Shown here piece after piece: positions 53,628-59,149 of a DNA stretch of 64,000 nucleotides. A program made the position numbers and the translations under genes. The stretch lies in assembly GCA_963710605.1 (NCBI GenBank), contig CAVQBA010000005.1, forward strand, positions 32,001 through 96,000, given 5' to 3'. A model generated the notes under the pieces. That model was not told the origin of the DNA. It ran no database searches and was given only the letters and a program-made list of their open reading frames with translations. Position 1 is the stretch's first letter. Each line of letters opens with the position of its first letter. Source of the DNA: an uncultured cyanobacterium (GTDB lineage Bacteria > Cyanobacteriota > Cyanobacteriia > Cyanobacteriales > Cyanobacteriaceae).

Positions 53628-55765
53628 CTATTTGACGATTTCGCCAAAATCAGCTAAAACACGGCTATTATTACGTAATAAACCTAATAAATTTAAGCGA
53701 TTGGTTTTGATTGCTTCATCTTCTGCCATGACTAAAACACTATTTTCACCATCAAAAAAGTTAGAGATAATCGGATTGATTTCTAATAGTGCATCGACTA
53801 AAAGTTGATAATTACGATCGTCTTTTGCTTTTTGAGTAATCGGTGCTAATTTTTGTAAAGCTTGATAAAGTGCTTCTTCAGCAGTCGAAGTAAACAAATC
53901 AGAATTAACTACTCTAAGGGGATTTAATTGTTGTTTATCTAAACTACCTTTATCGGCTAATTTAGTCGATCGATTTACTGTGGCATATATTTGTCCTAAC
54001 AATCCATTACTACGAATTGATTGTAAAAATAAAGCTCGATCACGAACATCAAGTAAATTAGTTAAAGCACGATTAATATATTCTTTATCGTTATTACTTC
54101 CTAAAACAGCATTGACTAAATCATAATCAATTTTTAACTCGTCTTGTAAAAGAGTATTAATTCGTTGTAAGAAAAAAGCTTGAATTATTTCTAACGGTGA
54201 AGATTTATCAGAATGAGAAGCAGTAAAATCTTGACACGATTGAGTTACCAATTCTTGTAGGTTGAGATTAAGATTTCCATGCCAAACAATATTGATGATA
54301 CCATTAGCCGCTCTTCTTAACGCAAAAGGATCACTAGAGCCAGTTGGCAACATACCTAAACCAATGATACCAACGATCGTATCAAGTCGATCGCTAATTC
54401 CCACAATTTGCCCATTAATTGTATCGGGCATAATATCTCCTGCATTTCTAGGTAGATAATGTTCAAAAATACCTTTAGCTACAGTAGCAGACTCACCACT
54501 AACTAGGGCATATTTTTCGCCCATAATTCCTTGCAAATTAGGAAACTCATACACCATTTGGGTAACTAAATCTGCTTTACACAAAGAAGCGGTGCTATCT
54601 ACTTCATTAGTTTGTGCTTCATCTAAATTTAATTGTTCGCAAATTTGCTGACTAATACTGATGATACGGTTAACTTTATCGTGAATTGAACCTAAATCTT
54701 CTTGAAAGGTAACATTTTCCAATTCAGGTAAATAAGTTTCTAAATGTTCATCACAATCAGCTTGATAGAAAAACTGAGCATCAGCTAATCTAGCTCTAAT
54801 TACTTTAGCATTACCCGTGGCGATAATCTCTGACTTGTCAGGATCGCCATTAGAAATAGTGATAAAGTAAGGCATCAGTTTGCCATCGTCGTCTCTAACA
54901 GGAAAATAACGCTGATGCTTAACCATTACCGTAGTAATTACTTCTGCGGGTAAGTTTAAATATTCGGCTTCAAATTTACCTAAAACAGCAGTCGGAAATT
55001 CAACTAAGTTAGTCACCTCAGTCAATAAATCAGGATAAATGTCTGCTTTACCACCAACTATATCTGCTAAATTTTTGATTTTATCTTTGATCAGATGACG
55101 ACGATTAGCAACATCAACTAAAATAAATGCTTTTTCTAACTCTAAAACATAATCATTAGCGTGGTTAATTTCAATGTCTTCTGGATGAAGGATGCGATGC
55201 CCACGACAAATACGATCGCTTTTTAAAACACTACTACCAGAGATTAACTCAAAAGGTAGTACTTCGTCTTCCCATAAAGAAATAATAGTCCGTATCGGAC
55301 GAGGAAAACGAACATCTCCATCACCCCACCGCATAAATCTTCTTCCTTCTAAACCATCAATCCATTGAGGTACTAATGAAGTTAAAATTTCACTTGTTTT
55401 CTGCCCTTTAATTTTTTTATCAACAAAAACAAACTCTCCTTTACTTGTTTCTTTAATTTGAAAATCATCAAGAGAAACACCTTGTTTACGAGCAAAACCT
55501 TCGGCGGCTTTAGTTGGTTTACCGTCTTTAAATGCAACCTTAATGGGTGGCCCTTTATTTCTTCTTCTCGATCGAGTTGCTGGTTTTCTAAACCTTCTAT
55601 GTATAATGCTAAACGTCTAGGCGTGCCATAAAACTTAATTTGATCAGGATGCAAAAACTGTTTGGCTAAATCTTCTCGCACACATTTTTGCCATTGAGAT
55701 ATAGCACTATCAATAAAATCAGCAGGTAGTTCTTCAGTACCAATTTCTAGAAGGAAGTTAGGCAT
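53628..55765 (-). CDS. glyS: glycine-tRNA ligase beta subunit; one base missing at ~55550 as sequenced
   Basis: [43 protein letters not shown]; adding one base restores KGPPIKVAF. Confidence 0.95.
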
Positions 55766-55844
55766 ATTATCGTTACATTTACAATCGTTTTCGTTTCTTT
55801 CTCATTATCAACTATTGCTAATCAATAATCAACAGTTAGAATAA

Positions 55845-56003
55845 TTGACAATTGACAATTGACAATTGACAATTAATATTTTCTACTTATTACTTATTAC
55901 TTTTTACTTCTACTTTCCTATTCCCTATTCCCTATTCCCTATTCCCATTCCCCATTCCCTATTCCCTATTCCTCATTCCCTATTCCCTATTCCCTATTCC
56001 CTA
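55845..56003. repeat. heptamer arrays (TTGACAA)n, (TTACTTA)n, (TTCCCTA)n
   Basis: direct reading. Confidence 0.9.
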
Positions 56004-56010
56004 GTTGCGG

Positions 56011-56291
56011 TATAATTATTAGTTAGGATGATCGCCTCCTTCTTCCACATTTTAGGCTCGATCGATCGTATTTGTCGGCTTCAATAGGTCGTACATTTAG
56101 GTTAGTCGAAGTATAAATTTAGAGTTAGATGAATTGATTCTGAGTGACTTAAGTCGGGTTATCTTCTCTTAAAAAAGAGATTTAATTACGCTAGTTATTA
56201 AGAATTTTTTGCCAACAAAAGCCCGAATGTGAAGGAGGTGTTTAGTCCGATAGCACTAATTTGTACACATCTATCTATTGTGAATTAGTGC
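56011..56291 (+). promoter_or_regulatory. TATAAT -10 box and putative long structured leader or ncRNA upstream of the baeRF gene
   Basis: long-range imperfect inverted repeat 56033-56079 / 56211-56240; 9-bp hairpin 56253-56291. Confidence 0.5.
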
Positions 56292-56330
56292 GTTTCAAGA
56301 ATTAAATAGTCCGTTGACAAAAAAACTAAC

Positions 56331-57536
56331 ATGACATCAGTAAATATAAAATCATTTTCACAGTCTGCTTTAAAAGAATTAGCAGAATCCCAGACTCAGT
56401 CTCCTTGTCTTTCGCTATATATGCCAACTGTAATGGCTGGACGAGAAACTCGTCAAAATTCAATTCGATTTAAAAATTTATTAGGGCAATCGGAAGAAAT
56501 TTTGAATGCAGAAGACGAAAACACTAGTAAAAAAATGCTCAAGTCTTTGGAAGCTTTGATCGATGACAATGACTTTTGGCAACATCAATCTGAAGGGTTA
56601 GCTGTTTTTTGTTCCCCAGAAGGAATAGAGTGCTATCAAGTGCCTAGTACTTTTCAAGAAGTAGTGATGGTAGGCAATGGTTTTTATCTTCGTCCTTTAA
56701 TTCCGCTTTTACTAGAAGCTAAAGAGTTTTTTGTACTTTCCTTAAGTCAAGGAAAAATTCGTCTTTTTAATAGTATGACTAATCAGGGGCAGGAGATTGA
56801 TTTAGGAGATGAAGAAGAGTTTCCTACTAGTGTAGAATCTGCATTACGTTTTGATGATCCAGAAGCACAACTTCAATCTCATTCAAGCGGTGGTACTTCT
56901 AGTGGTGATTCGGCGGCAATTTATCATGGGCAAGGAGTTGCTGGTACTGATAATAAAGAAGAAATTGAGCGATTTTTTCAAATAATTCACCCAAAAATTG
57001 AAGGGATACTCAAAGATACAAATGCTCCTTTAATACTTGCAGGTGTAGATTTTCTTCAACCTATTTATCGATCGGTTAGTAATTATCCTAAAATTCTTGA
57101 ATCAAGTATTAGCGGTAATGTCGAGCATTTAGGAATAGAAGAAATTTGTCAACAAGGATGGGATATTGCTAGTGAATTTTTCCAACAAGAGCATCAACAA
57201 GTAATTGAACAGTTTAAACAACAAAAAAATACTAACCCTGAGCTTTGTGCTCAAACTTTAGAAGAAGTAGTTTTTGCCGCCCTTGATGGTTTAGTCGATA
57301 GTTTACTTCTTGTTTCTACTGATCAAAAACAACAATGGGGGCGTGTTGATAATATTAAAAGACTAATTGAAATCGAACAAGAGCCTAAAAATGATTCTTC
57401 TGTTGAAGAGCTTTTGAATCTTGCCGCCGTTAATACTTTTAGTAAAGGTGGTAATGTTTATCTTGTGTCTGAGGAAGATGATGTCTCTATTGAAGGGGCG
57501 GCGGCTCTTTTAAGAGGTCCTGTAATGGTTCGTTAA
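56331..57536 (+). CDS. bacterial archaeo-eukaryotic release factor homolog (baeRF3/baeRF7-like)
   Basis: CLSLYMPT..GRETRQNSIRFKNLL, DFWQHQSEGLAVF, PLILAG, LLNLAAVNT..GGNVY. Confidence 0.82.
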   Translation: MTSVNIKSFSQSALKELAESQTQSPCLSLYMPTVMAGRETRQNSIRFKNLLGQSEEILNAEDENTSKKMLKSLEALIDDNDFWQHQSEGLAVFCSPEGIECYQVPSTFQEVVMVGNGFYLRPLIPLLLEAKEFFVLSLSQGKIRLFNSMTNQGQEIDLGDEEEFPTSVESALRFDDPEAQLQSHSSGGTSSGDSAAIYHGQGVAGTDNKEEIERFFQIIHPKIEGILKDTNAPLILAGVDFLQPIYRSVSNYPKILESSISGNVEHLGIEEICQQGWDIASEFFQQEHQQVIEQFKQQKNTNPELCAQTLEEVVFAALDGLVDSLLLVSTDQKQQWGRVDNIKRLIEIEQEPKNDSSVEELLNLAAVNTFSKGGNVYLVSEEDDVSIEGAAALLRGPVMVR

Positions 57537-57632
57537 TCAAGACAATAATACAATTAACTATTGTCTAATGAATCTTTGAAACCAAATCCTACTTTTCAAA
57601 GTACAACAATAACTAAATCTAATTAAGAATAA

Positions 57633-57656
57633 AACCTCTTGCTTCGTACAAGAGGT
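57633..57656. terminator. hairpin between convergent genes
   Basis: ACCTCTTG-CTTCGTA-CAAGAGGT. Confidence 0.55.
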
Positions 57657-57732
57657 AAAAAAATACTTTCAAAGGAGTTTCAATCTTCTTTTTTTTAGTT
57701 GAAGAGGCAATTATTGAATGATTTTGATCGTT

Positions 57733-58023
57733 TTAGTTTGTTAATGTAATAAGCACAAATGGTTGGACAATAATAGTGGGAAATTGTTGAGTTGGGTTTT
57801 GATTCCATTGACTTAATTGCTCAGCAGTTGGTTTTTGTAATAATTGTTCGCTGATCCAATTTTGAACTTGATCAGCTTTGTTTTGAGCGATCGCATAACC
57901 AGCATCAATCAAATCTAGTGGCGGATAAACGATAATTAAACTATCTTTTTGAGCATGAGGAATTAAATCTTTCCAATCAATAGGGGCAGTTTGTTCTTCT
58001 AACCTAGTTCTAATATCAGACAT
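57733..58023 (-). CDS. DUF2288 family protein
   Basis: WKDLIPHAQKD, LDLIDAG, IVQPFVL. Confidence 0.85.
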   Translation of the reverse strand: MSDIRTRLEEQTAPIDWKDLIPHAQKDSLIIVYPPLDLIDAGYAIAQNKADQVQNWISEQLLQKPTAEQLSQWNQNPTQQFPTIIVQPFVLITLTN

Positions 58024-58062
58024 CAATCAATTATATTTATTTTAGTTCCACATTAAATAGTA

Positions 58063-58171
58063 TATAGCAATTATCACCATTACGAGGTACATATCGATCC
58101 CCCTAAATCCCCCTTGTTAAGGGGGACTTGTCGATCGCTAACTGTACTTCACAAGTATGGGAAACGCTATA
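58063..58171. mobile_element. TATAGC...GCTATA MITE with D core
   Basis: TATAGC...GAGGTACA / TGTACTTC...GCTATA imperfect TIRs. Confidence 0.8.
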
Positions 58172-58414
58172 TACAGATAATAGTGAACAGTAAATAGATA
58201 ACAGGTGATAAGTAATAGGTCAACAAAGGGCAAAAGGAAAAGGGTAAAGGGCAAAGGGTAAGAGGCAAAAGTAAAAAGTAAAAAGTTATTTATTGTCAAT
58301 TGTCAATTCTTTTTCATCCTTCATCCTTTTGGTATAGTTAATCTATATTAATTTAGATTGAATATTGAGAATATATAATCGATAATTGATAGTTAATAAT
58401 GAAAAATGATAACT

Positions 58415-59149
58415 ATGAGTGATATTACCGTTGTTTTAATTGAAGATCACGATTTGACTCGTATCGGTTTGGTAGCGGCAATTAATCAGTTTGATAATAT
58501 CAAAGTGGTAGGAGATGCGGCTAATGGTAATGATGGTTTGAAAGTTTTGACCCAAAATCATCCTGATATTGCCATCATTGATATCGGTTTACCTGATATT
58601 GACGGGATTGAATTGACTGAGAAATTTAAACAGTCTCTAGTTCAAAAAGAAAAACAGACTAAAGTGATCATTTTGACAATGCACACTCAAGAAGACTCTG
58701 TCTTGGCTGCATTCGCCGCAGGTGCAGATTCTTATAGTTTGAAAGATGTTAGTTTAGAAAATCTTAATCAAGCAATTAAAATTACTTACGAAGGGGATTC
58801 TTGGATTGATCCGGCGATCGCACGTGTTGTTTTGCAACAAGCGAAAAAAATTAAACCACTTAATCCGATAGAAACTCAATTAGAAATAGATCCTTCTTTA
58901 AGTAGTCGTGAAATAGAATCATTAGATCCAGAATCCCAAAAAATTGTTGATAATTTTCCTCTCACCGATCGAGAATTAGAAGTATTAGAATTAATTGTCG
59001 CTGGTTGTAACAATGCTCAAATAGCAGAAAAACTCTTCGTCAGTGTTGGTACTATTAAAACCCATGTTCGCAATATTTTAAATAAGTTATGTGTTGACGA
59101 TCGTACTCAAGCGGCTGTTTGTGCCTTACGTTCTGGTTTAGTAGAATAA
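58415..59149 (+). CDS. NarL/LuxR-family response regulator
   Basis: IEDHDLTR, DIGLPDIDG, LTDRELEVL..GTIKTHVRNILNKL. Confidence 0.93.
   Translation: MSDITVVLIEDHDLTRIGLVAAINQFDNIKVVGDAANGNDGLKVLTQNHPDIAIIDIGLPDIDGIELTEKFKQSLVQKEKQTKVIILTMHTQEDSVLAAFAAGADSYSLKDVSLENLNQAIKITYEGDSWIDPAIARVVLQQAKKIKPLNPIETQLEIDPSLSSREIESLDPESQKIVDNFPLTDRELEVLELIVAGCNNAQIAEKLFVSVGTIKTHVRNILNKLCVDDRTQAAVCALRSGLVE

Follow-up and report, generated by a model that had tools for sequence, protein, structure and literature searches.

What role, if any, is played by a long and strongly folded spacer in front of a hibernation-type gene in a cyanobacterium? The question was raised by a 64,000-nt stretch of contig CAVQBA010000005.1 (the whole of which is referred to below as the window) from an uncultured cyanobacterium, whose genome is estimated to be 84.9% complete. 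A gene for a 401-aa protein of the baeRF family lies in this window behind a 565-nt spacer. An earlier reading of the same letters, here called the original prediction, had proposed that the last ~300 nt before the gene form a structured leader that senses ribosomes through an arm resembling the 3' end of 16S rRNA. The leader was found to carry a single-copy fold that is much more stable on the + strand and that precedes a distant relative of the ribosome hibernation factor Balon. It is tentatively read (probability of about 40%) as a lineage-specific long 5' untranslated region (UTR) with a 5'-proximal clamp, by analogy with the leader of the cyanobacterial gene lrtA. To our knowledge, the regulation of Balon-family factors is essentially unknown, and lrtA is the only cyanobacterial hibernation-factor gene that has been studied, its control being exerted via a long structured leader. 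If functional, the leader described here would be the second instance, evolved independently, in which a hibernation-type gene is controlled through its leader, and it would offer a handle on the timing of Balon-like proteins.

Elements of the leader and its gene

The following features were used throughout the analysis.

55833..57732, unstranded: segment with heptamer repeats, leader, baeRF gene and 3' spacer, missing in two same-family relatives
55852-55857 and 55874-55879, + strand: alternative candidate sigma-70-like promoter, TTGACA and TAATAT separated by a 16-nt spacer, with 10/12 consensus matches
56011..56016, + strand: TATAAT, candidate -10 box without a -35 box; position confirmed, promoter function putative
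56028..56087, + strand: upstream open reading frame (uORF) of 19 codons, translation MIASFFHILGSIDRICRLQ and stop, running through the 5' arm
56029..56052, + strand: outer clamp 5' arm, UGA.CGCCUCCUUC(UUCC)ACAUUU, defined by pair probabilities and containing GATCGCCTCCTT
56053..56224, + strand: AT-rich central domain; one local hairpin in it contains CGATCGATCG, which resembles a highly iterated palindrome (HIP); predicted pairs poorly supported
56225..56244, + strand: outer clamp 3' arm, GAAUGUGAAGGAGGUG.UUA, holding the Shine-Dalgarno (SD)-like GAAGGAGGTG and ATGTGA
56253-56261 with 56283-56291, + strand: perfect 9-bp hairpin, GCACUAAUU / AAUUAGUGC, with a 21-nt loop, from an inverted-repeat search
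56331..57536, + strand: 401-aa baeRF family 7/3 protein, distant Balon homologue, from open reading frame (ORF) and profile searches

The single elements named in the original prediction were located where it had placed them: the TATAAT box at 56011, the 19-codon uORF and the perfect 9-bp hairpin at 56253-56291 are all present. The 5' arm had been described as one base away from the 16S 3' end, and this was borne out against the genome's own three 16S genes, which end ...GGATCACCTCCTTA; the 12-mer GATCGCCTCCTT at 56030-56041 agrees with them at 11 of 12 bases. Its only other copy in the genome lies antisense within a coding region. An SD lying ~90 nt from the real start and overlapping a start-stop had also been claimed. 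The SD-like GAAGGAGGTG at 56231-56240 is 91 nt upstream of the ATG at 56331 and overlaps ATGTGA at 56227-56232, and the 3' arm contains a perfect 9-nt complement to the genome's own 16S tail. No ATG, GTG or TTG was found 2-15 nt after the SD-like run.

The uORF has no SD of its own, would be nearly leaderless if the transcription start site (TSS) is near 56023, and gave no sign of conservation. The window holds 79 copies of TATAAT, fewer than the average of 128 in shuffled sequence, and the copy at 56011 was not listed by the promoter scan because it has no -35 box. The TTGACA boxes further upstream arise from an (AATTGAC) heptamer array.

Folding of the leader RNA

The + strand RNA from 56020 to 56335 was predicted to fold with a minimum free energy (MFE) of -83.6 kcal/mol (z -4.10), and none of 100 shuffled sequences was as stable. 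For the 222-nt core at 56024-56245 the z-score was -3.60, with 1/200 shuffles as stable. The - strand reached -59.4 kcal/mol (z -1.24), a strand asymmetry of ~24 kcal/mol or 2.9 z units in favour of the + strand. The clamp holds two G-U pairs, at which the opposite strand would have C-A mismatches. An unusually well-folding region of ~300 nt directly upstream of the gene, as originally proposed, is supported.

The long-range pairing of the two arms held up in part. In the ensemble the outer clamp CGCCUCCUUC:GAAGGAGGUG had pair probabilities of 0.62-0.999, and ACAUUU:GAAUGU, which lies beyond a 4-nt bulge, had 0.65-0.93, so that the helix reaches 10 + 6 bp and, of the stem as originally drawn, these outer 16 bp alone are favoured. 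Further in, the proposed pairs of TTTGTCGGC/GCCAACAAA include a C-A mismatch and had a probability of ~0. The baeRF start codon, in front of which there is no SD, falls within an unpaired A-rich stretch of the predicted fold.

Background folds were obtained from 55 random 316-nt windows, drawn from this genome's ORF-free gaps that measure 330 nt or more. Their mean z was -1.0 (standard deviation 1.35), with 1/55 at z <= -4 and 5/55 at z <= -3. Of the 896 long gaps, 56 held a helix that spans 100-320 nt and has 10 or more contiguous pairs, 6 or more of them G-C, and most of these belonged to repeat families; near-unique sequence formed such a helix in 11/896 gaps only, the leader gap among them. 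The leader fold is real and falls roughly within the top few percent, and it is not unique.

Chance complementarity in an AT-rich spacer is a highly improbable source of this structure. CCTCCTT and AAGGAGG do occur within 20-400 nt of each other six times on the + strand where ~5 are expected (an estimate from counts), and the negative average z of the intergenic windows points the same way. The length of the helix, the shuffling results for both the leader and its core, and the rarity of comparable helices of near-unique sequence nevertheless argue against pure coincidence.

A distant member of the Balon family

The gene call of the original prediction was upheld and refined. The protein matched Pfam baeRF family 7 (PF18849; 1.4e-38, 132.8 bits against a gathering cut-off of 27.2) and baeRF family 3 (PF18845; 2.1e-32, 113.3 bits against a cut-off of 31.5). 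The NCBIfam profile NF052287 (AOC03_06830 family ribosome hibernation factor) was matched at 136.7 bits (E 1.3e-39), below its equivalog cut-off of 330, over residues 19-384 and profile positions 5-349 of 361. In a phmmer search the solved Balon chain 8rd8_B was aligned at E 1.7e-9 (residues 12-379 with 3-352). In the available portion of the Balon report, AOC03_06830 and 8RD8 both denote Balon (PMC10901736). Judged by these profiles, the gene product is a distant Balon-family member and not an equivalog.

In the phmmer alignment the HP motif of Balon is aligned with G-R, and the protein has no GGQ. An HGQ motif (YHGQG, residues 196-200, window positions 56916-56930) occupies the GGQ-equivalent loop and is present in 31 of the 42 homologues aligned, which hints that this baeRF clade, unlike Balon, may retain a catalytic-type loop. 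Two further features of the alignment were recorded separately: in homologues that lack the motif its Q is mostly H, and an N-terminal P-I-R-F-K-N motif is strongly conserved.

The baeRF gene is laterally patchy in its occurrence: no homologue was found in 19 same-family genomes. Homologues were present in 15/60 relatives and 70/400 genomes of the phylum, all at <=42% identity. Searches of genome_contigs gave four homologue loci (<=36% identity, from other phyla) and those of metagenome_contigs gave five (<=38% identity), which are too distant to provide an orthologous leader. No conserved upstream neighbour of the homologues was found; the four upstream ORFs examined encode DUF2267, FGGY_C, a protein of no family and NTP_transferase.

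A long 5' UTR as the favoured reading

Under the favoured reading, the leader would be transcribed together with the baeRF gene, most likely as a 5' UTR of ~310 nt driven by the -10-only promoter at 56011. The TSS set by TATAAT would lie near 56021-56026, placing it 3-8 nt before the clamp. Alternatively, the TTGACA/TAATAT promoter (55852-55879) could give a UTR of ~445 nt. The 16-bp clamp (56029-56052 with 56225-56244) would close a weakly constrained, AT-rich domain in a single-copy structure that is followed by the 9-bp hairpin. Being near the 5' end, the clamp would serve as a generic structure module that protects the mRNA, and it may damp translation. No + strand terminator-like site was found between the clamp and the ATG by the terminator scan, so read-through into the gene is expected, and since the start codon is unpaired the predicted structure does not mask the real start. 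Leader and gene lie together in a segment that is missing from two relatives, and pieces of both also occur in a related strain (run X1, below); these points were counted in favour of the reading, along with the stability and + strand bias of the fold and clamp pair probabilities of up to 0.999.

The nearest known counterpart is lrtA of Synechocystis PCC 6803 and Synechococcus PCC 7002, for which the consulted part of the report describes a promoter with a -10 box only; the structured leader, 312 nt long, makes the transcript more stable and hinders its translation (PMC4956104). Both cases would combine a cyanobacterial hibernation-type gene, a -10-only promoter and a structured leader of ~310 nt, which is a prediction here. 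The proteins differ, RaiA/HPF in the one case and an aeRF1-like Balon relative in the other. In the same part of that report the authors suggest that the real ribosome-binding site of lrtA is perhaps hindered, whereas the start is predicted to be open in the present leader (PMC4956104).

The same stretch of RNA could also end before the gene. An independent small RNA of ~270 nt, with the TATAAT promoter at one end, the hairpin of 56253-56291 at the other and separate expression of the baeRF gene, would agree with the compact, stable + strand fold and with a perfect 9-bp hairpin on its 3' side. This hairpin, however, has a 21-nt loop, is followed by no U-tract and was not called by the terminator scan, and no promoter-like site was found between 56292 and the ATG. 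Neither an Rfam family nor a homologue in 140 relatives was found for such an RNA (searches below), and it is considered very unlikely.

Conservation of the leader

One full-length copy of the leader was found in its own genome, at the 84.9% completeness given above. Searches of plasmid and phage DNA with the leader gave no match. The arm pattern was compared with 185,579 species genomes (genome_contigs); single matches turned up at 57 scattered places, and nowhere as a pair. In Rfam, 56011-56330 had no match at E <= 1, the two matches within 55300-58500 lying elsewhere and far below the gathering score. A tRNA/tmRNA search found none.

A covariance model (R1) was built from the single leader sequence and had no match at 47 loci. 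Two candidates that it returned among 140 relatives (22.2 and 18.8 bits) were rejected as chance; they had many non-canonical pairs and deleted domains and were not beside a baeRF gene. In the homologues, the upstream spacers range from -16 nt, where a short ORF overlaps, to 855 nt, and CCTCC and GGAGG both occur within 400 nt upstream in 5/37.

A closely related strain with pieces of both leader and gene exists in another sample. Short contigs of the public run X1 match 56079-56229, 57096-57246 and 57436-57586 at 93%, 98% and 98.7%, respectively. They cover part of the leader and of the gene, with the clamp arms outside their coverage, and carry no strand, start or end information. Differences amount to 10/151 in the central domain, compared with 3 and 2 per 151 nt in the two coding sequence (CDS) pieces.

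Several of these results weigh against the 5' UTR reading. Leader DNA searches of 60 relatives found no counterpart, only 20-58-nt chance-level matches in five genomes, and the covariance model found none in the 140 relatives. No conserved pairing was detected upstream of 37 homologues, a set whose identity of <=42% means that true orthologous leaders are perhaps absent from it. Among the homologue upstream regions that could be folded, 5/32 had z <= -3 through unrelated hairpins, and a good fold alone is therefore no proof of function; within the leader's own genome, ~2-9% of random intergenic windows fold comparably. In X1 divergence is faster in the central domain than in the CDS, and three of the four listed substitutions at MFE-paired central positions break the pair. 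The leader also departs from the lrtA comparison in having no sequence similarity to the upstream region of its own genome's hpf gene. Transcription start, co-transcription and effects on stability or translation are, moreover, inferred only. On comparative evidence, the leader is best described as an orphan structure of uncertain function and not as a new class of element.

Likeness to 16S rRNA and to palindromic repeats

The genome was found to contain a palindromic repeat, CCCCTCCTT-(1-5 nt)-AAGGAGGGG(TTAGGGGTGG), in 34 dispersed copies, 32 of which lie outside ORFs. The stem of this palindrome is itself an anti-SD/SD pair, and its CCUCCUU:AAGGAGG cores match the 7-nt cores of the leader arms. 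The repeat as a whole is ~100 nt long and centred on the palindrome, which is followed by TTAGGGGTGG; examples lie at G000:C2:59537, C4:226927 and C7:443637. Palindromes of the form CCCCTCCTT...AAGGAGGGG also delimit two elements, 179 and 228 nt in length. Anti-SD/SD complementarity is thus common in spacers of this genome and not linked to ribosome genes. In addition, any sequence that pairs with an SD must resemble the 16S tail, so the 16S likeness of the 5' arm is not independent of its pairing. The 16S-like 12-mer is the complement of the SD-like run, and its likeness looks like a by-product of a common hairpin theme.

The leader shares with the palindromes their stem cores, its location in a spacer and, in the bounded elements, a size of ~180-230 nt. 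It differs from them in being single-copy, in the distance between its arms (190 nt vs 1-5 nt) and in its flanks. When 27 oriented copies of the palindrome were made into an nhmmer profile, it did not match the leader, and this family is therefore a possible source at most. The genome also holds families of ~200 nt that resemble miniature inverted-repeat transposable elements (MITEs), one of them with the terminal inverted repeat (TIR) GGGCTGTTTCAT. In that family the arms are ~170-240 nt apart, and it occupies many spacers (G000:C4:138468, C4:479611, C2:28020). A MITE had been named as the alternative in the original prediction; with one genomic copy, no plasmid or phage match and no paired arms in the species genomes, membership of a MITE family is not supported.

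The ~215-nt inverted repeat may still be a functionless relic, that is, decayed repeat DNA of one-off MITE-like origin or a derivative of the CCUCCUU/AAGGAGG palindrome, placed upstream of the gene by chance and with no regulatory role. Though doubtful, this explanation is almost as likely as the 5' UTR reading. Its 216-nt size and imperfect terminal inverted repeats are MITE-like, as are the families just described, the 34 palindromes share the 7-nt cores of its arms, and bounded elements of similar length exist. By eye, the 3' arm with its flank, AAGGAGGTGTTTAG, resembles AAGGAGGGGTTAG of the family. The HIP-like CGATCGATCG in the central domain is present at 302 genomic sites, the central domain evolves fast and loses its pairs, and the structure is conserved nowhere else. 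Against a relic stand the single copy in its own genome, the failure of the palindrome profile to find the leader, and the absence of paired arms in species genomes and of any match in plasmids and phages. No clean target-site duplication is visible at the leader, although imperfect inverted arms are present. The strand asymmetry of the fold, in turn, speaks for a structure formed at the RNA level by the coding strand.

The arms could also act on ribosomes directly. The SD-like 3' arm might be a masked landing site, namely a STAB-SD-type stabiliser or a standby site, which the 16S-like 5' arm keeps shut. Processing that removes the 5' arm, or translation of the uORF that unwinds it, would open the site, and expression of the hibernation-type factor would thereby be coupled to translational status. 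The perfect 9-nt 16S-tail complement, which has no start codon of its own, and the uORF that spans the 5' arm exactly would suit such a site, as would the relation of the downstream gene to the ribosome. In the predicted fold, opening the 5' arm costs ~16 kcal/mol and frees the SD run. A precedent is found in the excerpted text on STAB-SD, in which orphan leader SDs can serve as binding sites for 30S subunits and thereby stop 5'-to-3' decay (PMC4113751). The energetics, however, oppose it: the intramolecular clamp duplex reaches -20.3 kcal/mol, and a duplex of the 3' arm and this genome's 16S tail -15.6 kcal/mol, so the SD-like run would normally be buried. The 9-mer AAGGAGGTG has 30 genomic copies, and just one is followed by a start codon that opens an ORF of 40 aa or more; the other 29 are not, and 34 SD/anti-SD palindromes lie in unrelated spacers. 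The uORF has neither an SD nor conservation in its favour, and the arrangement occurs in none of the 37 homologue leaders. A masked landing site is considered unlikely.

In STAB-SD itself, from the cry3A leader of Bacillus thuringiensis and as set out in the part of the report consulted, a non-initiating 5' UTR SD complementary to the 16S 3' end lies ~100 nt from the start, as here (PMC4113751). The cry3A SD must be accessible to 30S subunits at a processed 5' end according to the same part (PMC4113751), whereas the present run is predicted to be buried with pair probabilities of up to 0.999. The host here is, furthermore, a cyanobacterium, and the leader is known from sequence alone.

In a fuller version, the 16S-like arm and the SD-like site would form a translation-status switch, opened by uORF translation or loss of the 5' arm, with a 30S subunit docking ~90 nt upstream of the SD-less start. 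The docked 30S would then stabilise or load the mRNA, and synthesis of the hibernation-type factor would track ribosome availability. Such a switch is held to be decidedly unlikely.

Leaders of ribosomal-protein genes that mimic the protein's rRNA site, and standby sites masked by the 5' end such as that of tisB, provide known forms of this idea. The present leader resembles them in concept, as an rRNA look-alike or a masked landing site before a translation-related gene. It differs in that the part copied is the anti-SD tail and in that the arrangement is not conserved. In the available portion of its structural report, Balon contacts the decoding centre (h44 A1492 and H69 A1913), ~10 Å from the mRNA channel; the anti-SD tail is not among its contacts (PMC10901736). 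Copying of the anti-SD would thus not be expected of an autoregulatory rRNA mimic. This bears equally on the masked landing site. Given the lack of conserved pairing at the 37 homologues (all at <=42% identity), the 34 palindromes and the binding site of Balon, the ribosome-sensing role put forward in the original prediction was not sustained. On the favoured reading the 12-mer is an SD complement only and not a ribosome-sensing device. Where anti-SD/SD complementarity is met in a cyanobacterial spacer, the palindromic repeats of the same genome should be consulted before a ribosomal reading is adopted.

Locus and segment context

The further features of the locus were as follows.

55843..55879, + strand: (AATTGAC) x4.6 heptamer array, from a tandem-repeat search
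55884-55909: (TACTTAT) x3.7 array, preceding the (CCTATTC) array
55917..56003, unstranded: (CCTATTC) x12.6 heptamer array, from a tandem-repeat search
57634..57656, - strand: terminator-like hairpin with a T-run, serving the DUF2288 gene and not the baeRF gene
57733-58026, - strand: DUF2288 gene, convergent with the baeRF gene

The baeRF gene is monocistronic, divergent from glyS and convergent with the DUF2288 gene. By locus comparison, the spacer between glyS and the DUF2288 gene measures 208 nt and 137 nt in two same-family relatives (L061 and L065, respectively). On the left, homology of both to the window breaks off near 55832; on the right, it is picked up again inside the DUF2288 gene. 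In 16 other relatives, the DUF2288-matching loci did not include glyS within the 1.5-kb flanks taken. Judged from these alignments, the ~1.9-kb segment of repeats, leader and gene is either an insertion here or a deletion in the relatives. No direct or inverted repeats flanking the segment (55833..57732) were found. The GC content of the baeRF CDS (0.359) is close to that of neighbouring genes (0.34-0.35), and composition thus gives no sign of recent transfer.

Several minor observations were made at the locus. No recognisable intrinsic terminator was seen for the baeRF gene itself, the T-run hairpin at 57634-57656 being on the - strand only. The glyS gene (53628-55765, - strand) is split over two frames, with the break near 55550-55556 and residues ~1-72 in one frame. 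In relatives glyS is a single continuous ORF, and the split here is either a 1-nt assembly indel error or a real frameshift; it may partly account for the low completeness of the genome (84.9%). Short tandem arrays were also noted elsewhere. In the same genome, the hpf (lrtA-type) gene has TATAAT followed by a (GAGAATT) x7 array ~420 nt upstream (G000:C7), and relative L061 carries (TCATTAC)n in the equivalent glyS spacer.

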